This document shows positions 4,764 through 37,235 of a stretch of 64,000 nt of DNA, piece after piece. The DNA comes from Gemmatimonadota bacterium (GTDB lineage: Bacteria; Gemmatimonadota; Gemmatimonadetes; JACCXV01; JAHWKZ01). Numbering within the stretch: the stretch's first letter is position 1; every line of letters begins with the position of its first letter. A program made the translations under genes and the position numbers. The stretch covers positions 3,891-67,890 of the forward strand of contig JAICQP010000001.1 of the NCBI GenBank assembly GCA_025937815.1, written 5' to 3'. Under the pieces are notes generated by a model that saw nothing but the letters and a program-made list of their open reading frames with translations, was not told the origin of the DNA and searched no databases.

Positions 4764-4840
<77 letters not shown>

Positions 4841-10788: not shown

Positions 10789-10866
10789 GCCCCGGTAGCT
10801 CAGTTGGACTAGAGCAGCGGCCTTCTAAGCCGCGGGTCGGGGGTTCGAATCCTCCCCGGGGCGCCA
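10789..10866 (+). tRNA. tRNA-Arg (anticodon TCT)
   Basis: Acceptor GCCCCGG/CCGGGGC, D-arm GCTC-AGTTGGACTA-GAGC, anticodon loop CTTCTAA, T-loop TTCGAAT, CCA encoded. Confidence 0.8.
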
Positions 10867-10899
10867 TGCATGGCCGGGCGGTAGATTCGCATCTCACGT

Positions 10900-10977
10900 G
10901 GTGGGCGTAGCTCAGCTGGTTAGAGCACCAGGTTGTGGCCCTGGGGGTCGGGGGTTCGAGTCCCCTCGCTCACCCCA
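10900..10977 (+). tRNA. tRNA-His (anticodon GTG)
   Basis: Extra 5' G (G-1), anticodon loop TTGTGGC, T-loop TTCGAGT, CCA encoded. Confidence 0.8.
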
Positions 10978-11086
10978 CCTTCGCCAAGGCGGCCGGCGAG
11001 CCAGCCGGCCGCTTCGCGCGTTTGTGCCGGAGAACGCGCGCCGATATATTCCGCACGCCGCATCTCGCGGTCCCACCCCGGCTCGT

Positions 11087-11162
<76 letters not shown>

Positions 11163-24760: not shown

Positions 24761-25816
24761 GTGAAGCGGGATGCAGGGATCGGCGCGGGCGACCCGCCGG
24801 CGAGCCTCCGGGCGATCGTCGCGGGCGTCGACCTCCGCGCCGCGGAGTCCGAGGCGCTGTTCGCGCGGATCATGGACGGGGACGTCCCGCCGTCCATGGT
24901 GGGCGCGCTTCTCGCCGCTCTGGCGACCAAAGGCGAGACGTCCGCGGAGATCGCGGGAGCCGCGCGGGTCATGCGGGCGCGGGTGACGCGCGTGCCCACG
25001 ATCCGGGAGCCCCTCGTCGACACCTGCGGGACCGGCGGCGACCACTCCGGGAGCTTCAACGTGTCCACCGGCGCCGCGCTCGTGGTGGCCGCGGCGGGCG
25101 TCCCGGTGGCCAAGCACGGCAACCGCGCGGCATCCTCCCGCTGCGGATCGGCCGACGTGCTCGAGGCCCTCGGCGTGGCGATCGATCTCGATCCGGCGAG
25201 CGTGGGGCGCTCGATCGACGAGCTCGGTATCGGGTTCCTGTACGCGCCCCGCTTCCATCCGGCCATGCGACATGCCGCCCAGGCGCGTCGCGAGATCGGG
25301 ATCCGGACGATCTTCAACCTGCTCGGTCCGCTCACGAATCCGGCCGGAGCGCGGCGGCAGCTGATCGGGGTCCCGGCCGCCGACGCGGTAGGACGGATCG
25401 CGGGCGTGCTTCGCGAGCTCGGCGCCGAAGCGGCCGTCGTCGTGCACGGCATGGAGGGTCTGGACGAGATCTCCGTGTGCGGACCGACGCGGATCGCGTA
25501 CGTCGACGGTGGAGAGTTGGAGGAGTCGGTGATCGAACCCGCCGACCTCGGCTTGCCGACGTTCGAGATCCACGAGATGGCGGGCGGCGACGCGGCCGAG
25601 AACGCGGCCATCCTCCGCGGCGTGCTCGAGGGGCGGGGAAGCGACGCCCAGCGGGCGGTGGTCGCGGCCAACGCGGGCGCCGGGATCTGGATCGGCGGAG
25701 GGGCGGTGACCCTGCGCGCCGGAGTCGACCAGGCGCGTGAGACGATCGCGTCCGGGCGGGCGGCGGAGCTCCTGGACCGCCTCGTGGACCTGACCGCGCG
25801 GCTCGCGAGGGGTTAG
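24761..25816 (+). CDS. trpD: anthranilate phosphoribosyltransferase
   Basis: TrpD pattern (DTCGTGGDHSGSFNVSTGAA, KHGNRA); GTG start 24761; the long upstream six-frame ORF is antisense shadow of truA/htrA. Confidence 0.85.
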   Translation: MKRDAGIGAGDPPASLRAIVAGVDLRAAESEALFARIMDGDVPPSMVGALLAALATKGETSAEIAGAARVMRARVTRVPTIREPLVDTCGTGGDHSGSFNVSTGAALVVAAAGVPVAKHGNRAASSRCGSADVLEALGVAIDLDPASVGRSIDELGIGFLYAPRFHPAMRHAAQARREIGIRTIFNLLGPLTNPAGARRQLIGVPAADAVGRIAGVLRELGAEAAVVVHGMEGLDEISVCGPTRIAYVDGGELEESVIEPADLGLPTFEIHEMAGGDAAENAAILRGVLEGRGSDAQRAVVAANAGAGIWIGGGAVTLRAGVDQARETIASGRAAELLDRLVDLTARLARG

Positions 25817-26427
25817 CGGTACTTCCGCAGGACCCCGATCGCGACGCCCTGAATCCGGACCCGTGCGGCGTCGTAGTAGAGCGGCGTCAACCGCTCGTTG
25901 GCGGGCTGCAGCCGGATGCGGCCATCAGGCTCGCGGAAGAACGTCTTCAGGGTCGCGTTCTCGCCGTCGATGAGCGCGACCACCCGCTCGCCGCTACGCG
26001 CCGTGTCGCGGCGCTCGACGATCACGTAGTCGCCGTCCTCGATGTGCTCGTCGATCATCGAGTCGCCGGCCACCCGCAGGACGAACGTCTCGCCGCGGCC
26101 CAGCATCGATTCCGGAACCGCGATCGCCTCGTCATCGGTGATAGCCTCGAGCGGCTGCCCGGCCGCCACGCGGCCGAGGAGGGGGAGGAGAACCGCGGAC
26201 TCGCGCGAGCGGCCGCTCCCGTCGGTCAGCTCGATCGCCCGGCTCCGGTGGGGATCGCGCCGGAGCGCTCCCTTCTCGGCCAGGTTCTCGAGATGCTCGT
26301 GCACGGTCGCCACCGAGCTGAGCCCGAAGCGGGCCGCGATCTCCTCGAGGCTCGGCGCATAGCCGTTGTCTTCGATGAATTCGGCGAGGTAGTCGTAGAT
26401 TTCGCGCTGTCGCCTGGTTAGCTTCAT
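25813..26427 (-). CDS. lexA: LexA repressor (S24 peptidase)
   Basis: 204 aa; N-terminal HTH (LTRRQREIYDYL...), Ala-Gly cleavage-site region (VAAGQP), Ser/Lys dyad pattern (GDSM...KTF). Confidence 0.85.
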   Translation of the reverse strand: MKLTRRQREIYDYLAEFIEDNGYAPSLEEIAARFGLSSVATVHEHLENLAEKGALRRDPHRSRAIELTDGSGRSRESAVLLPLLGRVAAGQPLEAITDDEAIAVPESMLGRGETFVLRVAGDSMIDEHIEDGDYVIVERRDTARSGERVVALIDGENATLKTFFREPDGRIRLQPANERLTPLYYDAARVRIQGVAIGVLRKYR

Positions 26428-26457: not shown

Positions 26458-27339
26458 GTGCGCCGGCCGCACGCGGCGCCATCCGGTGGACGTCCAACAT
26501 TGACCGAACAAAGGCCGAAAGTCAACCCCCCCTCGGGTTTCCTCGCGGGCGCTCTGGCGCGAAAGCGGGCCGAGGTGGATCTCGCCCGGCGTAGACGGCC
26601 ACGCGCGGAGCTCGAGCGGCTCGTCGCCGCCCGACCCGCGGTCCGGTCGCTCGCGGACGCCCTCCGGGGAGAAGGCGCGTCGGTGATCGCCGAGGTGAAG
26701 CGGGGGAGCCCGAGCGCGGGAGTCCTCGACGCCGGCATCGATGCGCCGGCGCGCGCCCGCCTCTTCGAAGAGCGGGGAGCCGCGGCGGTCAGCGTCCTCA
26801 CCGACGCGGAGTTCGACGGCCGGCTCGCGGATCTCGAGGCGGTCGCCGCGGCCGTGTCGGTTCCCGTGGTCCGCAAGGACTTCCTCGTCGACCCGTGGCA
26901 GGTCTGGGAGAGTCGCGCCGCGGGGGCGGACGCGGCCCTCGTGATCGTCGCCGCGCTCGGCCCGCGGGAACTCGGAGCTCTGGTGGCGGAGAGCGCGGCC
27001 GCGCGTCTCGGCCTTCTGTTCGAGATCCACGACAGGGCGGAGGCCGGGGCGGCGATCGACGCCGGCGCCTCCGTCATCGGCGTCAACGCGCGCGACCTGT
27101 CGTCCCTCGAGGTCGACCTGGACTCGGCTCTATCCACGGTCGCATGGCTGCGCCGCGAGGTCCCCGATGCGGTGATCGTCGCCGAGAGCGGCGTCGGGGG
27201 CGAGGAGGGAGTTCGGCGCGCACGCGACGCCGGGGCCGACGCGGTCCTGGTCGGGGAGCACCTCTCGCGCGCGGTGGATCCGGGGAGCGCGCTGGAACGG
27301 CTGGTGGCCGCCGGCAGGCGCGCGGTCGGCTCCGCGTGA
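26458..27339 (+). CDS. trpC: indole-3-glycerol phosphate synthase
   Basis: IGPS pattern (SVIAEVKRGSPSAG, VLTD, NARDL); GTG 26458 or in-frame TTG 26503 as start. Confidence 0.8.
   Translation: MRRPHAAPSGGRPTLTEQRPKVNPPSGFLAGALARKRAEVDLARRRRPRAELERLVAARPAVRSLADALRGEGASVIAEVKRGSPSAGVLDAGIDAPARARLFEERGAAAVSVLTDAEFDGRLADLEAVAAAVSVPVVRKDFLVDPWQVWESRAAGADAALVIVAALGPRELGALVAESAAARLGLLFEIHDRAEAGAAIDAGASVIGVNARDLSSLEVDLDSALSTVAWLRREVPDAVIVAESGVGGEEGVRRARDAGADAVLVGEHLSRAVDPGSALERLVAAGRRAVGSA
26495..26509 (+). promoter_or_regulatory. candidate LexA operator (GTTC-N7-GTTG on minus strand)
   Basis: Minus-strand GTTCGGTCAATGTTG ~70 nt upstream of lexA start, resembling GTTC-N7-GTTC direct-repeat SOS boxes. 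Confidence 0.35.
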
Positions 27340-27387
27340 CCGCGCGGGGACGCGGCGGAAGTCCCGAAAGCTAGTACTTTTCTCCAC

Positions 27388-28041
27388 GTGTCCTTCTCCT
27401 TCCGGATCAAGATCTGCGGCATCACTTCGGAGGAGGCGGCGCGCACGGCCTTCGAAGCAGGTGTCGATCACCTGGGGCTGGTCTTCTGCCCGTCGCCGCG
27501 ACGCGTCTCCGAAGAGCGCGCGTCCGCGCTGACGCATGCCGTGCCGGCCGCCTGGGTCGGCGTGTTCGCGCACCAATCTCCGCGGGAGGTGGCCCGGACG
27601 GCGCGCGCGCTCGACCTGGCCGCGATCCAGCTCCACGGGAGGGAATCGCCGGCGGAGTGCCGCGCGGTTCGGGAGCTGGCTGGGATCCCGGTGTGGAAGG
27701 CCATTTTCGCCGAGGAAGAAGCGGAGGAAGCCGGCTACGAGGCCGCCGTCGACGCCCTCCTCCTCGACGCGGGCGAGGGCGGCTCCGGACGGGCGCTCGA
27801 CTGGGCGGCCGTCGGAGAGCGCTTCCCCGCATCGCGGCGGATCGTGCCGCTCCTGCTGGCGGGAGGGCTGAGCCCGGACAACGTGGCGCGGGCGATCGAA
27901 GCGGCGCGGCCCGACGGCGTCGATGCGAGCAGCCGGCTCGAGACGAGCCCGGGCGTGAAGGACCCGCGGCTCGTGACGGAGTTCGTGCGGCGCGCCAGGA
28001 ACGCCCGCCGGGCGCAGGTCGCCGGGTCGGCGGCGCCATGA
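27388..28041 (+). CDS. trpF: phosphoribosylanthranilate isomerase
   Basis: IKICGIT N-terminus and TrpF barrel pattern; ATGA overlap with trpB. Confidence 0.8.
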
Positions 28042-29237
28042 GCGCGATGGCCCCGGCGAGCGGGCGACCGGGGTACTTCGGCGCGTTCGGCGGCCGCTAC
28101 GTGCCCGAGACCCTCGTGTTCGCGCTGGACGAGCTGGAGCGCGCGTGGGCCGCGGCCTGGTCCGATCCGGAGTTTCACGCCGAGCTCGACGCGCTCCTCG
28201 CCGATTACGTCGGCCGGCCGTCCCCGCTGACCCACGCTCCCCGGCTCTCGGCCGAAGCGGGAGTCGACATCTGGCTCAAGCGCGAAGACCTCAACCACAC
28301 CGGGGCGCACAAGATCAACAACACGCTGGGACAGGTCCTGCTCGCCCTGCGGATGGGGAAGCGGCGGATCATCGCCGAGACGGGCGCCGGCCAGCACGGC
28401 GTGGCGACGGCGACGGCGTGCGCGCGCTTCGGGCTGGAGTGCGTGGTCTTCATGGGAACGGAGGACACGCGGAGGCAGGCGCTCAACGTGTACCGGATGC
28501 GGCTGCTGGGAGCGGAGGTGGTGGAGGTCGACTCCGGGACCCGCACGCTCAAGGACGCCACCAACGAGGCGATCCGGGACTGGGTCACTCGTGTCGAGAC
28601 GACCCACTACGTGATCGGCTCGGTCGTGGGACCCCACCCGTACCCGACCATCGTCCGCGAGCTGCAGTCGGTGATCGGCCGGGAGGCGCGCGCGCAGTCG
28701 CTCGAGCGGTGGAACGATCTTCCCGACGCCGCGATCGCGTGCGTCGGCGGAGGCTCGAACGCGATCGGTCTGTTCCATTCCTTTCTCGACGATCCCGTCG
28801 AGCTGTACGGGGTCGAGGCGGCGGGCGAGGGGCTCGATCGCCGGCATGCGGCGACGCTCTCCCGGGGCCGGCCCGGGGTCCTGCACGGCGCTCGGAGCTA
28901 TCTGCTCCAGGACGAGCACGGCCAGGTGAGGGGAGCGCACTCGATCGCGGCGGGCCTGGATTATCCCGGTGTGGGTCCCGAGCACTCGGCGCTCAAGGAC
29001 AGCGGCCGCGTGACCTATCTGGCCGTGGACGACGCCGAAGCGCTCGACGCGTTCCATCGCACGAGCGAGCTCGAGGGGATCATCCCCGCGGTGGAGAGCG
29101 CGCATGCGATCGCCGCGCTCCTGCGCCGCCCCCCGCTCCTTCCCGAGGGTGCCCGGACGATCGTCTGCCTGTCCGGACGAGGAGACAAGGACGTGCAATC
29201 CGTCGCCGCGCTGGAAGGCGCTTCCGAAGCACGGTGA
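28038..29237 (+). CDS. trpB: tryptophan synthase beta chain
   Basis: PLP-enzyme pattern [23 protein letters not shown]; ATG 28038. Confidence 0.9.
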
Positions 29238-30901
29238 GCGTTTCCGATCCACAGACCACAGCCGCGGCCGCCACCGAGCTCGTGCAGGAGCTCGTCCGCG
29301 TGTTCAAGGTGCGCCGGCTCTACGGGCCGCGGCACCCGCAGCGGATCGACGTCGAGTCGGTGGCGGCGCGTCGAATCGCGTCCCTCCTCAAAGAAGAGTC
29401 CAGCGTCGAGCTCGAGATACGCGAGACGTCCCTGCTGGCCGGCGGGGAGGCGGTCTATGAGCACGCGCCGGGGCCGGAGTCGCTGGCCAACGTTCTGTTC
29501 CGCGAGGGGCTGCGGCAGATGGTGTTCCACGACGGGCTGAGCGCGGAGGAACTTGGCGGTTTCCTGGACGAGGTCTGGACGGCTTCGCAGCAGCGGGCCG
29601 ACGACGAGTTCGATCTCGTCGCCCGGCTGTGGGAGAAGCGCTTCGTTCACATCCGGTATCTGTTCGTCGAGACGCTCTCGGACGAGGAGTGGGAGCCGCC
29701 GGCCGAGAAGCGGCTCAGCGAAACCGAGCGCGAGGCGCTGCAGGTCTCGCTCACGGAGGAGGACCTGACGGCGCTCTCCCGTCCGCCGACCGTGCTGCTG
29801 GCCGACCCCACGCTGTACTTCCTCGACGACGAAGACATGGCCGAGCTCCAGGGAGGGCTCGAGGACGAGAAGGGGCGGGCGCTCTTCTCCGAGGTGCTGA
29901 CGTGCGTTCGCGAGCTGCTCATGGAGCCGGTCGTGGACGACCTGTCGCCGGCGCTCGAGATGATCGAGGAGATCCATTCCGAGTACATGCGCGATCAGAT
30001 CTTCCGCCGCGTGATCGAGCTGGAGGAGATCTTTCAGCCCTACCTCACGAGCCCCGCCGCGACGGAGGAAGCGCGCGCCGCCTTCGCGCGCATGAAGGAA
30101 AGCGCGCTGAGCGAGTCGAACCTGAATCGCCTCGGCGCGCGCCTTCTGGCGGGCGAGCTCGATGAAGCCGAAGCCGGGCGCTTCGTGCGCGCCTTCGGGG
30201 GAGGCCAGTTGCGAGCGCTCCTGGCCGGCCTGCCGGAGATAAAGCGGATCTGCCAGTTCCCCGCCATGGGAGCGGCCTTCGTCGAGATCGCCTCCACGGA
30301 TCCGGCGGGGCTCCGCCAGGCACTCACCGGAGACGACCCGCAGGTGGCGGGCGCCGCCGCGTTCATCGTCGGGATGACCGGCGACAGCCGATTCCTCGAT
30401 GCGCTGGGAACCGCCCTTTCGTCGGGTGATCCGGAGGTCAGGCGAGAGGCGCTCCTCGCCCTCAAGAGCTTCGGTGGAGGACAGGCGCTGGAGTTCGTGA
30501 GCCGCGCGGTCGACGACGGGGATCCGTCCATTCGTCTCTACGCACTCCGGCACCTGGTCAGCCACCGCTACGCGCCGGCCTTGCCGAAGATCTCGAACCG
30601 GATGACGAGAGTGGACGCCGAGCGCTCGCTGACCGAGCAGCGGCTGCTCTACGAGGCCTACGGTGCGCTGGGCGGAGACCAGGTCGTGGACGACCTGATC
30701 TCGCGCTTCCGGCGCCGTAAGGGGCTGTTCCGCAAGCGGGATCCCGAGGAAGCGGCGTGCGTGCTGATCGCCCTGGGCGCGACGGGGGCGGCGGCCGCCA
30801 GGGAAGTCGTCGAGCAGGCCAGCGCGGACCGCCATCCGCTCATCGCTCGTGTCGCCGGACAGGTGCTCCAGTCGTGGGGCGCCGTGAGGGCCGAGGCGTG
30901 A
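29234..30901 (+). CDS. HEAT/armadillo-like repeat protein (unknown function)
   Basis: GTG start overlapping trpB stop (GTGA); 555 aa largely helical with HEAT-like repeats near C-terminus ([28 protein letters not shown]); no catalytic motifs. Confidence 0.55.
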
Positions 30902-32340
30902 GCCACGTCGCCGCGACCGTTCCGATCCAGGGCCTCGGGCGGGAGCTCGTGCAGAACCTGTTCGTCGCCCTCCGCTCCGCCCAGCTCTACGACGCCCGGA
31001 ACGACACGCTACGCGCGGCGGCGGAACGATTCGCGCGGACGCTCGAGGAGCTCCAGCTCGTCGACCGCAGCGCGCGCCTCGAGGTCGGCGGCGACCTCAT
31101 CCTCGTCAACGACGTCCGCATCCGCAGCGAGCTTCGGAGCTACAGCGTGCACGCGAATCTGCTGCGGTTCTTCCGGGAGATGGGAATCGGCGGGTTCGAG
31201 TGGGAGACGGCCCCGGACGTTGGCGAGGCGGCGCGGTTCGTCAGCGTGGTCGGGCGCATGGAGCTGGAGGACGAGGACGACGATCCGGTCTTCCGACTCC
31301 GCCAGCGGCTCGTCGACGAAGGTCTGGGCGGCACGCGGGTGCTCGAGCCGCGCGAGGAGGAGGCCGACACCCTTCTCGACGACCCCGACAAGCGGCGCCG
31401 AGCGGAAAAGACGTACCGGCACACGGTGGCCGTGACGCGCCAGCTCATGGAGAGCCTGCGCGCGGGCCACACGCTGCGGCTGACGCGCGTGCGCCGCGCG
31501 GTACAGTCGATCGTCGATCAGGTGTTCGACGACGAGAGCCTCCTCGTGGGGCTCACCAACCTGCGCGACTACGACGAGCCGACGTTCACGCACAGCGTCA
31601 ACGTGTGCATCTTCGCGGTCTCACTGGGCCAGCGGATCGGGCTCTCGCGACTCGAGCTCTACGAGCTCGGCATGTGCGGGCTGCTCCACGATCTGGGGAA
31701 GGTCGACGTGCCGCGCGAGGTGCTACTCAAGAGCGAGGCGCTGACCGACGATGAGTGGGAGGCGATGCAGCGTCACCCGGCGTACGGCGTGTGGCGGATC
31801 ATGGCGGGCCGTACCAAGGGGCGCGTGCCGGCCAGGGAGATGCTGGCCGCGTTCGAGCACCACCTGAACGTCGACCTGTCGGGATACCCGGCGATTCGCC
31901 ATCCGCGCCGGCTGTCCCTCTATTCGCGGATCGTCGCGATCTGCGATTCCTTCGATGCGGGGACGACCCCGCGCGTCTACAAGACCGACCCGATCACGCC
32001 CGCGGAGATGCTGCAGGCCCTCGAGCGCTGGAAGGGCGTCCGCTACGACCCGATCCTGATCAAGGCCTTCGTGAGCCTGCTCGGGATCTACCCGCCGGGT
32101 TGCGTGGCGCTCCTGGACACCCAGGAGATCGGCGTGGTGCTGGCCGTCGACCCCGATCCGCGCAACATCAACCGCCCGCGCGTCAAGATCGTGGTCGACT
32201 CGGACGGGCTCCACATCGACGGACCGATCGTCAGTCTCGCCGAGCGGACGCCGGACGGGGACTTCGCGCGCACGGTGATCAAGGTGCTGGAGCCCGAGCG
32301 CTACGGCATCGACTCGGCCCGCTATTTCCTGGCCGGATGA
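30898..32340 (+). CDS. HD-GYP domain protein (putative c-di-GMP phosphodiesterase) with N-terminal domain of unknown function
   Basis: GTGA overlap with upstream gene; HD motif LLHDLGK, HHLNVDLSGYP (HHExxDGxGYP-like) motif. Confidence 0.65.
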   Translation: MSHVAATVPIQGLGRELVQNLFVALRSAQLYDARNDTLRAAAERFARTLEELQLVDRSARLEVGGDLILVNDVRIRSELRSYSVHANLLRFFREMGIGGFEWETAPDVGEAARFVSVVGRMELEDEDDDPVFRLRQRLVDEGLGGTRVLEPREEEADTLLDDPDKRRRAEKTYRHTVAVTRQLMESLRAGHTLRLTRVRRAVQSIVDQVFDDESLLVGLTNLRDYDEPTFTHSVNVCIFAVSLGQRIGLSRLELYELGMCGLLHDLGKVDVPREVLLKSEALTDDEWEAMQRHPAYGVWRIMAGRTKGRVPAREMLAAFEHHLNVDLSGYPAIRHPRRLSLYSRIVAICDSFDAGTTPRVYKTDPITPAEMLQALERWKGVRYDPILIKAFVSLLGIYPPGCVALLDTQEIGVVLAVDPDPRNINRPRVKIVVDSDGLHIDGPIVSLAERTPDGDFARTVIKVLEPERYGIDSARYFLAG

Positions 32341-33155
32341 GCCACGCGGCGTCGTCGCGTGGGAACCTGCGGCGACTGATGGACGCGCGCGCGGGGGGGC
32401 GCAAGCTCCTCGTCCCATTCCTGACGGCGGGCTACCCGGATCGGAAGACGTGCGCCGAGGCCCTGGCGGGGCTCGCCGACGCGGGCGCCGACGCGATCGA
32501 GCTGGGCGTGCCGTTCAGCGATCCGCTGGCCGACGGCCCGGTCATCGCCGCCGCCTCCGAGCTGGCCATCGCGGGCGGCACCTCGATCGAGGACGCCTTC
32601 GACCTGGCGGCCGGGTACGTTCGCGCCGGCGCGGATCGGCCGCCGCTCGTCCTCTTCACGTACCTGAATCCGGCGGCCTCGCTGGGTCCCGATCGGCTGG
32701 CGGAGGCCTGCGCCGACGCGGGCTTTGCCGCGGCGCTCGTCGCCGACCTGCCGTACGACGAAGACCCCGCGGTCGCGGCGGCGCTCGCGCGGCGCGGGCT
32801 GCCGCTCATCCGCCTCGCGGCGCCGACTACCCCGGCCGAGCGCCTGGCGGAACTCGCCCGGGGCGCCGAGGGCTTCGTCTACCTGATCGCGCGCACGGGG
32901 ACGACGGGCGCGGGAGCCGGAACGGACGCGCGCGTCGCCGAGCAGGTGGCGGTCATCCGCGCGAACACGGACCTGCCCGTGGTCGTCGGTTTCGGAATCG
33001 GCGACACCGAATCCGCGCGGCGCGCCGCGCGGCTCGCCGACGGCGTCGTGGTGGGGAGCGCGTTCGTCGAGCGGCTGGGGCGCGACGGACCGGCGGCGGC
33101 CGTGGGATGGATGCGGACGCTGCGCGACGCGCTCGATCGACCGGTGTCCGTTTGA
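32337..33155 (+). CDS. trpA: tryptophan synthase alpha chain
   Basis: TrpA pattern (LVPFLTAGYPD, ELGVPFSDPLADGP, GFG); ATGA overlap with upstream gene. Confidence 0.85.
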   Translation: MSHAASSRGNLRRLMDARAGGRKLLVPFLTAGYPDRKTCAEALAGLADAGADAIELGVPFSDPLADGPVIAAASELAIAGGTSIEDAFDLAAGYVRAGADRPPLVLFTYLNPAASLGPDRLAEACADAGFAAALVADLPYDEDPAVAAALARRGLPLIRLAAPTTPAERLAELARGAEGFVYLIARTGTTGAGAGTDARVAEQVAVIRANTDLPVVVGFGIGDTESARRAARLADGVVVGSAFVERLGRDGPAAAVGWMRTLRDALDRPVSV

Positions 33156-33276
33156 CGCCCTTTCCGCCCCGATCCTAGATTCCGGCGCTCACCTGCATCT
33201 TCTCCACACTTCCCTGGATGGCGATCGCGGGGATGATCGCGATTCATCGCGGCCGCGGGCCGCACGAGGTCAGGCA

Positions 33277-34074: not shown

Positions 34075-37000
34075 AGCGCGTGAACGGCAGAGGAAATCGG
34101 CGGCCGCTCTTCGGACGGCTCCGCGGAGCCGTACTCGCGGTCGCGCCCGCGGCGCTTCTCGTCGTCGGCCCGCCTCCGGATGGCGTGTCCATCCCGCCGC
34201 CAGGCGCCTCCTCGCCACGGCCGGACGCCTCCGCCGTGGCGCAGGGCGCGCCGACGCGTGTGATCATCCAGCTCGCCGACGCCGCCTCGCGTGCGCGGCT
34301 CCTGCGCGAATCGGTCACGCTCCCGCTGCCTCTGGATGCGCGCCACGAGCGTGTGATTCGCGGGCTCAAGGCGATCCACTCCGCATCGCTGTCCGAGGCG
34401 CGCGACGTGCTCGAGGAGGCGCGGCGGGCGGGCGCGCTGACGGAGGTCGACCGGCTCTGGTCGGTGAACGCCGTCGTCGCGATCGTCGATTCGGAGTGGA
34501 TTCAGCGGCTCGAGGCCGACCCCGCGATCGCGCGCGTCGTGGCCGATCGCCGGTTGAAGCTCGGATCCGCGTCTGCCGCCAGCCCCGCAGACGCGCGGCC
34601 CGCCGGCGCAGCGGCATCCGACGCGCTCGTCCCGACGCCCGAGCTCGAGCAGATCGGCGTGCCGGCCGTGTGGGCGGACGGGGTCACCGGCAAGGGCGTG
34701 ATCGTCGCCAACGTCGACACGGGCGTCCACGGCGACGACGACACGATGGAGGACAACTGGCGAGGGCTTTTCGCGGGGAGCGACGCCAGCTGGTACGCGC
34801 CGGTCGCATTGACGGTCTTTCCCGAGGACGACGGAGCCGGCGTTGGCCACGGTACCCCCGTGATGGGCATCCTCGCGGGCGGGGAAGAGACCTTCGGCGT
34901 CGCCTTCGACGCGACCTGGATCGCCGGGGACCTGTTCGAGCAAGACGAGGGTTTCGTCTCGACGGCGATCAAGATATTCGAGTGGCTCTCGGACCCTGAC
35001 GGAGACCCCGCCACCACCACCGATGTGCCCGACGTCGTGAACAACTCCTGGGGAATCGATACGAACCGGGATCAGCAGGGGCGACTGCAGTGCGATCCCA
35101 TCTTCAACGAGGCGATCGACGCGATGGAAGCGGCAGGCTCCATCGTTATCAATACCGCGGGTAATGAGGGGACGAACGGGGTAACCGCGCCGGCGAGCCG
35201 GGCCGACACAGAGGTCAACGCGTTCGCGGTCGGCGCCGTGGACGATCAGAACGAGATCCTCGACTTCAGCGGCAGAGGTCCCTCGGCGTGCGGGGGTTCC
35301 TTCTCGACGAAGCCCGAGGTCGTGGCGCCAGGCTTCCTCATGACGAGCCGCTCGAAATTCAACGCCACGATCGGGACCTTCACGGGCACGTCCTTCGCCA
35401 CGCCCGTCATCGCCGGCGTGGCGGCCCTCATGCGGTCGAAGGACCCGACGATCACGCCGGAGGAGGCGAAGACGATCCTCATCGAGACCGCGGCAGACCT
35501 GGGCCCAGGTGGCGACGACAACACATTCGGCTACGGCCTCGTCGACGCGGACGCCGCGCTCGCGCGGGTGGATCGACCCACGCAGCCTTTTGCGCGGCTG
35601 GTGGGCTACCGACCTGTGGGAGCGGTGCCGGCAGGGAAGCTGGGACCGGCTGCGATCGAGGACGCGCTCGTCCTGAGGCCAGGGCAGGCCGCGGATCTCT
35701 TTCCGCTACTGTCCAACCACGGCCCCGCGCTGCCCGCGACCACCGGCGTGCTGTCGAGCTCGACCCCGGGCGTGACCGTCACGCGCTCGACCGTCCCGCT
35801 CACCGCCGCAGCCACGGGCGAGTTCTTCGGACCCGCGGCGGGCGAATCGTTCGGCGTCGAGATCGGATCCGCGGTGGCGCCGGGCAGTGACATCTCGCTG
35901 ACGCTTACCGTGAACGGGGCGTCCGTCGGACCCTTCCGCATGATCATCAAGGCCGGAGACCCGGTCGAGGGCAGCTTCGCCACGCACGACGCCGGTCGCG
36001 TGCGCCTCAGCGTGACGAACTTCGGCGGGCTCGGGTACTACACGGGCATCCACGGCTTCGACTTCGTCCTCCGCGGCGAGGGGTTCCGGTTCCCGCCGAC
36101 GAGTCCCAACTGGCTCTTCCACGGCGGGTTCCTGGCGGGCACGGGGCCGACGCGGCTTTCGGACGACATTCCGTACGGCGAGGACACGGAGGCCTCGACC
36201 GACTGGATCCCCCTATTCGGCGCCCCGATCGAGGTCGGCGAAGCGGCGGGCGGACAGGTGATCGAGGCGGCCTACGACGACCGCCGCGCGCTCTCGCCGC
36301 TCGGGCTGGAGGTCGTCCAGCGATCGTTCGCGTTCGACGACGCCGGCGACGACGCCTTCGTCCTGCTTCAATACGTGATCAGAAACACGTCGGCCCAGTC
36401 GTTGACCGGGCTCCGACTCGGCCTGTTCGCCGATTGGGATCTGCCGGGATCGGGCGGCGACCCACAGGAGACTGCCGGCTGGGACCCCTCGCGCAGGTTG
36501 GGGTTCGTCGCGGGCGAGATCGCGGGTCAACCCGCGCTGGGCGTCGTCTTGCTCGACGACGTCGCGCTCGGCCAGGTGACGTACGCGGTGCTCCGCCGCG
36601 AGGACGTGATCGAGAGCTCGGTGGGGAATCCGCCCGCGCCCGGGAACCGCGCGCCGGCCGTGGCCCAGGCGCCCGACATCGGGGAGTTCTCGGACACGGA
36701 GAAGTGGAACGCGCTCTCCAGCGGGCAGACGAACACGTCGGAATCGAATCCCCAGGATCTCTATCAGATCATCGGCGTGGGGCCGCTGGCGCTCGCGGCG
36801 GGCGCCAGCGACACCGTCGCGGTCGCCCTGGTCGCGGGCGAAAACCAGGCCGCGCTCCAGGCCAACGCGGAGGCGGCGCGCGAGGCGTACTTCGTCCGCG
36901 TGCTGGGTACCGAGCCGCCCCCGCCGCCGCCGCCGCCCACCGAGCTGGCGCTGGAGCAGAACTTCCCGAACCCGTTCCGGCTGGGCGAGCAGACCACGAT

Positions 37001-37235
37001 CCGCTTCGCCGTTCCGGAGCCGGCTTCCGGACCGGCGCGAGCGTCGCTCGTCGTCTACGACGTTCTCGGTCGCCGCGTCCGGACGCTCGTCGACGGCGAC
37101 GTGATCGCCGGGGAGCAGGCCGTCACGTGGGACGGGGCCTCCGACGCCGGCGCAACCGTGCCGAGCGGCGTCTATCTCGCGCGGCTCGAGTCGGCCGGGA
37201 GCGAGAAAATGGTGCGCATCCTGTTCGTCCGCTGA
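34071..37235 (+). CDS. S8 subtilisin-family serine peptidase with T9SS C-terminal sorting domain
   Basis: GTGA overlap with upstream gene; signal peptide; catalytic D (VANVDTGV), H (GHGTPV), S (GTSFATP) motifs; C-terminal LEQNFPNPF...VVYDVLGRRV...AVTWDG...SGVYLARL matches Por/T9SS type-A sorting domain; poly-Pro linker. Confidence 0.8.
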   Translation: MKRVNGRGNRRPLFGRLRGAVLAVAPAALLVVGPPPDGVSIPPPGASSPRPDASAVAQGAPTRVIIQLADAASRARLLRESVTLPLPLDARHERVIRGLKAIHSASLSEARDVLEEARRAGALTEVDRLWSVNAVVAIVDSEWIQRLEADPAIARVVADRRLKLGSASAASPADARPAGAAASDALVPTPELEQIGVPAVWADGVTGKGVIVANVDTGVHGDDDTMEDNWRGLFAGSDASWYAPVALTVFPEDDGAGVGHGTPVMGILAGGEETFGVAFDATWIAGDLFEQDEGFVSTAIKIFEWLSDPDGDPATTTDVPDVVNNSWGIDTNRDQQGRLQCDPIFNEAIDAMEAAGSIVINTAGNEGTNGVTAPASRADTEVNAFAVGAVDDQNEILDFSGRGPSACGGSFSTKPEVVAPGFLMTSRSKFNATIGTFTGTSFATPVIAGVAALMRSKDPTITPEEAKTILIETAADLGPGGDDNTFGYGLVDADAALARVDRPTQPFARLVGYRPVGAVPAGKLGPAAIEDALVLRPGQAADLFPLLSNHGPALPATTGVLSSSTPGVTVTRSTVPLTAAATGEFFGPAAGESFGVEIGSAVAPGSDISLTLTVNGASVGPFRMIIKAGDPVEGSFATHDAGRVRLSVTNFGGLGYYTGIHGFDFVLRGEGFRFPPTSPNWLFHGGFLAGTGPTRLSDDIPYGEDTEASTDWIPLFGAPIEVGEAAGGQVIEAAYDDRRALSPLGLEVVQRSFAFDDAGDDAFVLLQYVIRNTSAQSLTGLRLGLFADWDLPGSGGDPQETAGWDPSRRLGFVAGEIAGQPALGVVLLDDVALGQVTYAVLRREDVIESSVGNPPAPGNRAPAVAQAPDIGEFSDTEKWNALSSGQTNTSESNPQDLYQIIGVGPLALAAGASDTVAVALVAGENQAALQANAEAAREAYFVRVLGTEPPPPPPPPTELALEQNFPNPFRLGEQTTIRFAVPEPASGPARASLVVYDVLGRRVRTLVDGDVIAGEQAVTWDGASDAGATVPSGVYLARLESAGSEKMVRILFVR

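Follow-up and report, generated by a model that had tools for sequence, protein, structure and literature searches.

A HEAT-repeat protein and a predicted HD-GYP phosphodiesterase encoded between trpB and trpA in Gemmatimonadota: a probable autonomous cyclic-dinucleotide signalling module

The locus described here belongs to a soil bacterium of the phylum Gemmatimonadota and was analysed within a window of 64 kb, a term used throughout for the whole stretch of DNA under study. Two genes, here called X and Y, stand between those of the tryptophan synthase subunits in the order trpF-trpB-X(555 aa)-Y(480 aa)-trpA (Table 1), and each junction is a four-nucleotide overlap: ATGA at trpF/trpB (28038-28041), GTGA at trpB/X (29234-29237) and at X/Y (30898-30901), and ATGA at Y/trpA (32337-32340). 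This order and its overlaps, reported in the first-pass annotation, were confirmed by reading the sequence, as were the gene identities, which rest on Pfam and TIGR matches above curated cut-offs, with both tryptophan synthase subunits matching at equivalog level (TIGR00263 and TIGR00262). The start codons chosen for X and Y match the N-termini of their homologues, and profile searches gave neither protein a match to any trp family. Upstream, the 3' ends of trpD, whose position is kept in relatives, and of the convergent lexA overlap by 4 nt, and the trpC reading frame is open from 26458, with a TTG at 26500 as the earliest start codon ahead of the IGPS domain. In a simple scan of the + strand from 27013 to 33152 no promoter-like or terminator-like site was found, and the sole promoter-like match in the region lies directly past the end of trpA (33152-33181). 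A scan of the whole window at Rfam gathering thresholds returned four tRNAs only, with no leader, attenuator or T-box of the kind used in RNA-based trp regulation, and PADLOC anti-phage defence models gave nothing beyond low-scoring, unspecific hits for HEAT (20 bits) and HD (14.7 bits).

Table 1. Coordinates of the genes, protein domains and predicted operator at the trp/lexA locus, in window positions.
Feature	Position	Strand	Evidence and remarks
trpD, anthranilate phosphoribosyltransferase	24779..25816 (start approximate)	+	Pfam Glycos_transf_3, 308.6 bits, and Glycos_trans_3N
lexA, SOS repressor, divergent from the trpC...trpA run	25813..26427 (ATG at 26427)	-	Pfam LexA_DNA_bind and Peptidase_S24
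Direct repeat CCGAACAAAGGCCGAA, probable LexA operator (predicted)	26504..26519	no strand	conserved upstream of lexA, 70/70 loci
trpC, indole-3-glycerol-phosphate synthase	26500..27339 (start uncertain)	+	Pfam IGPS, 215.4 bits
trpF, PRA isomerase	27388..28041	+	Pfam PRAI, 154.5 bits; ATGA overlap with trpB
trpB, tryptophan synthase beta subunit	28038..29237	+	TIGR00263, 593.7 bits (cut-off 392.45); GTGA overlap with X
X, 555 aa: N-domain, acidic linker (low-confidence prediction), HEAT-repeat solenoid	29234..30901	+	
X N-domain, aa 1-147, alpha/beta	29234..29674	+	hhalign to Y family
X HEAT_2 match, aa 359-437	30308..30544	+	Pfam PF13646, 53.3 bits (cut-off 27.7)
Y, 480 aa: N-domain, HD-GYP phosphodiesterase domain, small C-terminal beta domain	30898..32340	+	
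Y N-domain, aa 1-152	30898..31353	+	homologous to X N-domain
Y HD-GYP catalytic domain, aa 165-395	31390..32082	+	invariant key residues; PmGH alignment
Y C-terminal beta-rich domain, aa 396-480	32083..32337	+	conserved columns; modelled strands E403-E464
trpA, tryptophan synthase alpha subunit	32337..33155	+	TIGR00262, 210.7 bits (cut-off 102.35); ATGA overlap with Y

Y is a probable HD-GYP phosphodiesterase with intact catalytic motifs that is predicted to degrade cyclic-di-GMP. It matches HD_5 (PF13487, residues 224-385) at 66.6 bits against a cut-off of 27.2 and the Pfam HD family at 40.7 bits against 22, and no HD-GYP motif other than its EHHLNVDLSGYP occurs in the window. The motifs proved not to be degenerate, a point on which the earlier assignment depended, as the key catalytic and GYP residues (H232, H264-D265, K268, H293, H321-H322, D326, G329-Y330-P331, D350 and D353) are invariant in 18 family members of 40-91% identity. 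The best sequence match among solved structures is the active enzyme PmGH (E 1.2e-30), and comparison with its metal ligands (E185, H189, H221, D222, H250, H276, H277 and D305) showed seven of the eight to be identical in Y (H232, H264, D265, H293, H321, H322 and D350), while the glutamate of the third metal site is off by one, with E227 beside the aligned P228, so that the centre may hold either two or three metals. The model of Y shows the HD-GYP fold, with Bd1817 as best fold match and with low confidence in the loop surrounding the GYP motif (residues 325-337). Among the closest solved relatives some enzymes are specific for c-di-GMP and others for cGAMP; the predicted substrate is most likely c-di-GMP, with 3'3'-cGAMP as the alternative. 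Between close relatives Y is conserved as strongly as TrpB or more so (at locus L010 identity to the window is 91% for Y, 87% for TrpB and 73% for TrpA), a pattern suggestive of purifying selection.

The solved HD-GYP enzymes that match Y in sequence, namely PmGH (4MCW), PA4781 (4R8Z), DvhD (9RBZ), V-cGAP3 (5Z7C) and Bd1817 (3TM8), share with it the HD...HD...H...HH...D metal ligands and the GYP motif, the latter reading HHLxxDLSGYP in Y as opposed to the canonical HHExxDGxGYP. Unlike these enzymes, Y possesses an N-terminal domain without sequence match to any solved structure and without a Pfam family, an extra conserved C-terminal beta domain, which fused homologues also carry behind their HD-GYP domain, and an obligatory HEAT-repeat partner bearing the same N-domain. 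RpfG-type (REC + HD-GYP) and DUF3391-HD-GYP proteins are likewise built from a regulatory domain at the N-terminus and an HD-GYP output domain behind it, and some database entries for fused X-Y homologues are titled 'response regulator RpfG family c-di-GMP phosphodiesterase'. Assignment of Y to the RpfG type was rejected on account of the lack of a REC domain and of any Pfam Response_reg match, its N-terminal region being the alpha/beta domain that is also present in X. A DUF3391 domain (PF11871), suggested in the first-pass annotation, was likewise discarded, as its score of 17-19 bits falls below the cut-off of 27.8 and the match covers profile positions 89-133 only, on the linker helix at residues 151-195. 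Since Y carries neither REC nor DUF3391, its regulation would therefore not operate by phosphotransfer of a known type.

The helical-repeat partner recognized earlier is a HEAT-repeat protein, with helical repeats from about residue 200 to 555 (model helices H199-H554) that adopt an alpha-solenoid fold in the model. The C-terminal two-thirds of X is thus a HEAT_2/HEAT_PBS-type solenoid like that of the PBS-lyase/alphaRep-type HEAT proteins (CpcE/F, MpeQ, YibA), a likeness that implies no lyase function; X differs from these proteins in its extra N-domain, shared with Y, and in having a phosphodiesterase rather than a phycobiliprotein as its partner. Homology of the two N-terminal domains (about 145 aa) is indicated by hhalign of the X and Y families (probability 92.6%, E 4.7e-7, 142 columns), and in the models the order of secondary-structure elements in the X domain is that of Y residues 1-150. 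The conserved motif is FKVRRLYxPxHPQR in X and LRSAQLYxxxN in Y, and the shared domain has no Pfam match, even at E values up to 10. A profile search with this domain retrieved 6,049 representatives of clusters at 50% identity; among the best 143 of these, 54 match the N-domain model alone, being mostly short proteins, and nearly all of the remainder are N-HEAT proteins (52), N-HD-GYP proteins (17) or X-then-Y fusions (at least 15), such as the 1,568-aa TNE50701.1 from a 'Deltaproteobacteria bacterium'. The shared domain and the natural fusions strengthen the earlier notion of a partnership, and because X and Y are joined into one polypeptide in other bacteria, it is very probable from sequence that they work as a pair of functional partners.

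Conservation was assessed in 80 GTDB species representatives with Y identities of 41-99%; the fetched loci comprised the window, these representatives and a few other contigs, and 78 of them were scorable. All of the best 80 GTDB loci belong to Gemmatimonadota. The first-pass annotation had allowed for an insertion peculiar to this genome, and trpB-X-Y-trpA was found in 64 of the 78 loci, in each of the two branches at the deepest split of the Y tree and down to 41% identity in Y and about 25% in X; the arrangement is old and phylum-wide and not the chance property of one genome. The junctions are kept as well: X and Y overlap by 4 nt in 74/79 loci, Y and trpA by 4 or 8 nt in 60/68, and 60/60 trpB/X junctions show an NTGA overlap read in the frame of X, the NTG that overlaps the trpB stop being in many relatives the only canonical start codon of X. 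From the overlaps at trpB/X, X/Y and Y/trpA the module would be transcribed together with the trp genes, and the earlier proposal of co-transcription and coupled translation gains support from their conservation, from the frequent restriction of the X start to the trpB stop and from the lack of internal signals in the scan.

In 14 loci trpD, trpC, trpF, trpB and trpA are all absent locally and lexA-X-Y is kept intact, and these loci fall at no fewer than eight scattered positions of the Y tree; none of the 78 scorable loci has only trpB or only trpA beside X-Y. Outside the phylum the split or fused module occupies five unrelated contexts, and no trp or lexA neighbours were seen for the one split pair and four fusions examined. 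Membership of X-Y in the tryptophan pathway was rejected on the basis of the missing trp family match, the retention without local trp genes and the trp-free contexts elsewhere, and the functional tie to tryptophan synthase drawn in the first-pass annotation was overstated. Its description of the trpB/trpA separation as unusual has to be softened too, given that PMC2395257, citing Xie et al. 2003, records trpB and trpA parted by a non-trp gene in Burkholderia (trpF-trpB-X-trpA) and in some Flavobacterium. In those operons, as here, an unrelated gene interrupts trpB/trpA in a trpF-B-A unit and is conserved within the taxon. On the other hand, the inserted genes are here two in number and form a signalling module, with translational overlap on both sides and phylum-wide conservation.

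These observations are best explained, with a probability of roughly 0.6, by a self-contained two-protein signalling module that has long been captured in the trp operon and whose function is not tied to tryptophan synthesis; judged by sequence, X-Y is probably an undescribed autonomous two-protein cyclic-dinucleotide phosphodiesterase module. Y would act as the catalytically competent HD-GYP phosphodiesterase and X as a HEAT-repeat scaffold or regulator, the two pairing via their common N-terminal alpha/beta domain; this would let the X solenoid of HEAT repeats control or localise the phosphodiesterase. The placement of the module between trpB and trpA, within an operon divergent from lexA, would date from an early Gemmatimonadota ancestor, with vertical inheritance of the arrangement since then. 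Being lodged in the trp operon, it would be co-expressed with tryptophan synthase: ribosomes passed on from trpB would translate X-Y and ribosomes from Y would translate trpA, a hand-on that would fix the relative output of the four proteins. Such embedding would make phosphodiesterase abundance follow the activity of the trp/lexA control region, with the biochemical function of the module remaining separate from tryptophan synthesis.

The control region itself contains the direct repeat of Table 1, which reads CCGAA-N6-CCGAA and, on the lexA strand, TTCGG-N6-TTCGG. The exact repeat occurs in the 64-kb window only at this position, and in 70/70 loci the 300 nt preceding lexA hold one or two copies of its core CGAA-N7-CGAA, whose flanking C's are both nearly invariant; the background rate is 0.018 per 300 nt. 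The repeat resembles LexA boxes built as direct repeats, GTTC-N7-GTTC, and is probably, on this pattern, a LexA operator. The constant neighbour of X-Y is lexA and not the trp genes: lexA adjoins X-Y or trpC in 70 loci and is adjacent and divergent wherever the upstream sequence suffices, and where a lineage lacks the trp genes, the stretch from lexA to X contains the repeat, at locus L003 some 70 nt ahead of the start called for X. With a candidate operator in the shared divergent region, DNA damage would de-repress the operon, phosphodiesterase included, and this SOS control would be compatible with the captured autonomous module, to which it would add a regulatory input. It is nevertheless rather unlikely, as the predicted operator may serve lexA autoregulation only, the two Gemmatimonadales repeats are nearer to lexA (16-60 nt from its start) than to trpC, the module is not beside lexA in the contexts examined outside the phylum, and no published LexA box of Gemmatimonadota was found in the literature.

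A functional tie of X-Y to tryptophan synthase or to indole, in which the module would act on or with TrpA/TrpB (for example with its HEAT scaffold bound to the synthase) or its N-domains would sense indole, tryptophan or an intermediate and change cyclic-di-GMP, is considered improbable. Genes inserted in trp operons have been speculated to assist the pathway (PMC2395257), and the deeply kept placement, the overlaps found nearly everywhere at trpB/X and Y/trpA, an X start that in many species is seemingly never independent of the trpB stop, and the loss of the surrounding trp genes together or not at all speak for such a link; taken with this all-or-none loss, the long trpB/trpA placement could also reflect real functional dependence. 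However, the scattered trp-less loci with intact lexA-X-Y and the trp-free contexts in other lineages count against it, and the N-domain family far exceeds the needs of a trp accessory specific to Gemmatimonadota. A physiological connection between tryptophan and cyclic-di-GMP is not established by the evidence from the locus.

Very unlikely is an inactive, HD-GYP-like Y (a nucleotide receptor or structural partner) in a pair that is a neutral passenger whose overlaps hinder clean excision, since the Bd1817 fold match (HD-GYP-like, HDG"Y"P in its PDB entry), the unaligned glutamate and the low model confidence around GYP are set against HD, HH, D and GYP residues invariant down to 40% identity, the match to active PmGH, a Y sequence that ranks, in comparisons of close relatives, with the best-conserved products of the operon, and the survival of the module through repeated precise deletion of all trp neighbours, which argues for selection on the module and not passive hitch-hiking. 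Equally doubtful is a trpB-X-Y-trpA chain that is functional rather than historical, in which TrpA would be made only by ribosomes having translated X-Y and the pair would either assemble on the synthase or use its paired N-domains to sense indole or tryptophan; were it true, the flux of the last tryptophan step would be wired to cyclic-di-GMP and, via the predicted LexA operator, to DNA-damage signalling.

Knowledge of HD-GYP phosphodiesterases lags well behind that of EAL enzymes, and most HD-GYP regulatory domains have yet to be characterised. The analysis delimits a large family (about 6,000 clusters) whose HD-GYP enzymes and HEAT proteins, encoded side by side or fused, have a specific N-domain in common. 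This suggests a phosphodiesterase regulated by its partner, for which no earlier description was found, and thereby a new type of HD-GYP regulation. For Gemmatimonadota the analysis also provides a candidate LexA operator. From the perspective of operon evolution, the captured module would represent a foreign two-gene unit locked between the subunits of an obligate heteromeric enzyme through the whole history of a phylum, which, with overlaps on both sides, has outlived the repeated loss of the surrounding pathway.

The two genes lodged between trpB and trpA in the window, encoding a 555-aa HEAT-repeat protein (X) and a 480-aa HD-GYP protein (Y), probably constitute (at roughly 60%) an autonomous cyclic-dinucleotide phosphodiesterase module outside tryptophan synthesis, that is, a self-contained two-protein unit with a phosphodiesterase role that would have been captured in the trp operon early in Gemmatimonadota evolution and would be linked to trpB and trpA by a shared transcript and by chained translation without being part of that pathway. 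The trpF-trpB-X-Y-trpA run linked by four 4-nt overlaps, described in the first-pass annotation together with both protein lengths, was recovered as claimed, each junction being read directly from the sequence. Judged by family matches, the genes flanking X-Y are ordinary trp genes, as TrpB matches TIGR00263 (593.7 bits), TrpA TIGR00262 (210.7 bits), TrpF PRAI and TrpC IGPS. A consensus scan of the + strand over 27013-33152 returned neither promoter-like nor intrinsic-terminator-like sites, its sole promoter-like match lying directly 3' of trpA. Interpreting the operon as governed by an RNA leader, T-box or attenuator was dropped, since Rfam found no leader, T-box, attenuator or riboswitch upstream of or inside the operon or elsewhere in the window; its tRNA matches comprise four genes, one at 4764-4837 and three clustered at 10789-11159.

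Coordinates of gene junctions and control-region features in the window
Feature	Position	Strand	Remark
trpD	ends 25816	+	convergent with lexA
lexA	25813-26427	-	divergent from trpC
CCGAA-N6-CCGAA direct repeat	26504-26519		divergent lexA/trpC control region
trpF/trpB junction	28038-28041	+	ATGA overlap
trpB/X junction	29234-29237	+	GTGA overlap
X/Y junction	30898-30901	+	GTGA overlap
Y/trpA junction	32337-32340	+	ATGA overlap

Overlapping junctions are likewise found in relatives, where X and Y overlap by 4 nt in 74/79 non-redundant loci and Y and trpA by 4 nt in 10/68 loci and by 8 nt, with a TTG start, in 50/68. At the trpB/X junction, an NTG in the X frame overlaps the trpB stop in 60/60 loci, in the form of ATGA (5 loci), GTGA (22) or CTGA (33), the last being located among the Gemmatimonadales loci L025-L087 (for example L026, 7134-7200). 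In the CTGA species, third-position variation indicates that the X frame is clearly coding over about 20 codons past the trpB stop (per-position codon entropies 0.44, 0.22 and 1.03), where it encodes the conserved peptide ...PELALPPSQVEELMQV. The first canonical X-frame start lies 17-43 codons downstream of the trpB stop in most of these species, and in some of them it is past the N-domain's invariant LY motif, the N-domain being the ~145-aa N-terminal domain common to X and Y. X probably initiates at CTG in these species through re-initiation by ribosomes terminating on trpB, in which case its translation would depend on that of trpB.

The lexA gene is wedged between trpD and trpC inside the trp cluster, a position kept in relatives, and the 3' ends of trpD (+) and lexA (-) overlap by 4 nt (25813-25816). 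The direct repeat, searched as the core CGAA-N7-CGAA, occurs in one or two copies at most 300 nt upstream of lexA in 70/70 Gemmatimonadota loci (L001-L087), against a background in these loci of 0.018 per 300 nt; Gemmatimonadales usually have two tandem copies, the two single-copy loci belong to the window's clade, and the 64-kb window holds no further exact copy besides the one tabulated. This repeat probably serves as LexA operator across the phylum, and no description of a Gemmatimonadota LexA box was found in the searchable literature. Being situated in a divergent control region, the candidate operator may also affect the X-Y operon, and SOS control of X-Y, an add-on compatible with the phosphodiesterase-module reading, is considered unlikely.

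Named homologues of X and Y come exclusively from Gemmatimonadota. Scanning the Y alignment against one genome per GTDB species yielded 578 confirmed relatives, and the best 80 of these loci are all Gemmatimonadota (Y identity 41-99%, the closest being L008, a soil MAG, at 99%). With the window proteins mapped onto the fetched loci, the majority order is trpD> <lexA trpC> (trpF>) trpB> X> Y> trpA>. Among the 78 loci judgeable on both sides, X-Y is surrounded by both trpB and trpA in 64, which disposes of the initial concern that the insertion might be absent in all relatives, and by neither in 14; trpB without trpA, or the converse, was seen in no locus. The 14 trp-less loci read <lexA X> Y>, and several of them keep the window's downstream genes (AP_endonuc_2, peptidase S8, folB, folK, panB and panC). 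In the window, the peptidase is a large subtilase (Peptidase_S8, 34200-37235) with a C-terminal FlgD_ig-like domain, downstream of the AP_endonuc_2 (xylose-isomerase-like TIM barrel) gene, and synteny of these two genes extends over the window's clade and nearer relatives (Y identity ~47% or more). Local trpD, trpC, trpF, trpB and trpA are absent from L003-L006, L013, L016, L019-L023, L039, L056, L067, L077 and L085, the rest of the locus being syntenic, and partial trp loss is seen in no locus; tryptophan auxotrophy is possible in such lineages, as is compensation by replacement trp genes at another genomic site. As for trpF, it is missing between trpC and trpB in most Gemmatimonadales loci (L007, L025-L047 and others), where trpB directly follows trpC, and it is kept in the window's clade and in MAGs labelled Gemmatimonadaceae.

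When a neighbour-joining tree built from Y is rooted on L090 (a divergent paralogue or outgroup pair), both branches of its deepest split contain the trpB-X-Y-trpA state, and the trp-less state turns up at no fewer than eight scattered positions. Parsimony favours the embedded arrangement as the ancestral state, from which trpD, trpC-(F)-B and trpA would have been lost on repeated occasions, with lexA and X-Y kept under selection. A very divergent X homologue (P0202, 27% identity) again lies in trpF-trpB-X-Y-trpA, and, in other contexts, neither trp nor lexA genes neighbour the four fusions L092-L095 or the split pair L090. A recent horizontal insertion was rejected because the arrangement persists down to 41% Y identity. 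The identities of X, TrpA and LexA rise with that of Y across loci (Spearman 0.60, 0.48 and 0.54, respectively); TrpB identity shows no significant correlation with it (0.17, p = 0.18), and G+C is slightly lower over X-Y (0.67-0.70 vs 0.70-0.77). Co-option of the embedding, for example for indole/tryptophan sensing or scaffolding on the synthase, appears improbable; what speaks for it is the all-or-none trp pattern around X-Y and the extreme stability of its position between trpB and trpA. X-Y survives wherever the local trp genes are lost and is present elsewhere without them, which speaks against the tie to tryptophan synthase proposed at first as a biochemical dependence.

Regarding enzymatic function, Y matches HD_5 (66.6 bits) and HD (40.7 bits) of Pfam over residues 224-385. 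Across 18 aligned family members (40-91% identity), H232, H264, D265, K268, H293, E320, H321, H322, D326, G329, Y330, P331, D350 and D353 are invariant, and the HD-GYP motifs, catalytic and GYP residues alike, are thus as intact as first supposed. Seven of the eight metal ligands of PmGH (4MCW), an active HD-GYP phosphodiesterase of solved structure, align to identical Y residues, and the eighth, the Glu of its third metal site, is one position off in Y. Given these invariant residues and shared ligands, Y looks catalytically competent, and it is highly improbable that X-Y is an inactive, neutral passenger, since catalytic residues are invariant and conservation is strong. A regulatory domain N-terminal to HD-GYP is a familiar arrangement in such enzymes. 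DUF3391, HDOD and REC were dropped as identities of the Y N-terminus on score and coverage, DUF3391, the earlier suggestion, falling below threshold and touching a linker helix only; a defence-system reading of X-Y was also rejected. Following the HD-GYP domain, residues 396-480 (32083-32337) form a conserved beta-rich domain with the motif GIYPxG..V.LD..E..VV ... RP.V, which recurs in fused homologues and is without family assignment.

The helical-repeat nature of X is borne out by a HEAT_2 match (53.3 bits, residues 359-437), and its predicted model (pLDDT 85) comprises an alpha/beta N-terminal domain (residues 1-147), an acidic linker predicted at low confidence and, as its third part, a HEAT-repeat solenoid. 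X and Y are homologous over their N-terminal ~145 residues: pairwise BLASTP gives a hint (E 0.03), profile-profile comparison of the two families reaches 92.6% probability (E 4.7e-7, 142 columns), and helices and strands follow in identical order in both models. No Pfam family matches the N-domain, even at E up to 10, and a word-indexed protein search with its alignment returned eight fragments only. A profile search against 1.84 billion cluster representatives detected 6,049 proteins at E <= 1e-3, of which 1,749 also pass E <= 1e-10. When the top 143 were classified with HMMs built from X and Y parts, 52 joined the N-domain to an X-type solenoid, 17 to an HD-GYP domain with or without the C-terminal beta domain, and 54 matched the N-domain model alone (mostly short proteins, probably fragments), with at least 15 carrying two N-domains in one polypeptide, in X order then Y order. 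Pfam confirmed HEAT_2 plus HD_5 in several fused proteins, which come from independent assemblies (TNE50701.1 is annotated 'Deltaproteobacteria bacterium'). X-Y type fusions lie in other bacteria and unrelated gene neighbourhoods (L092 6001-9024, L093 1207-5913, L094 6001-9234 and L095 6001-10182; 1,007-1,568 aa, others up to 1,985 aa), several with long additional N-terminal extensions. Together, the constant order of the two genes, their overlap by 4 nt and the repeated occurrence of fusions are strong arguments for X and Y functioning as a single unit, and no description of such an HD-GYP/HEAT pair was found in a literature search.

Separation of trpB from trpA, initially regarded as unusual, has precedents in Burkholderia (trpF-trpB-X-trpA) and some Flavobacterium, and genes inserted in trp operons have been speculated to be passengers or helpers (PMC2395257). 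Beyond this general precedent, no literature description of the Gemmatimonadota trp/HD-GYP arrangement was found. What is new is the module itself, with its common N-domain of no known family, its HEAT partner and its natural fusions, as well as its fixation in the trp operon throughout the phylum, overlapped by neighbouring genes at either end, and its persistence where the pathway genes were lost time and again.
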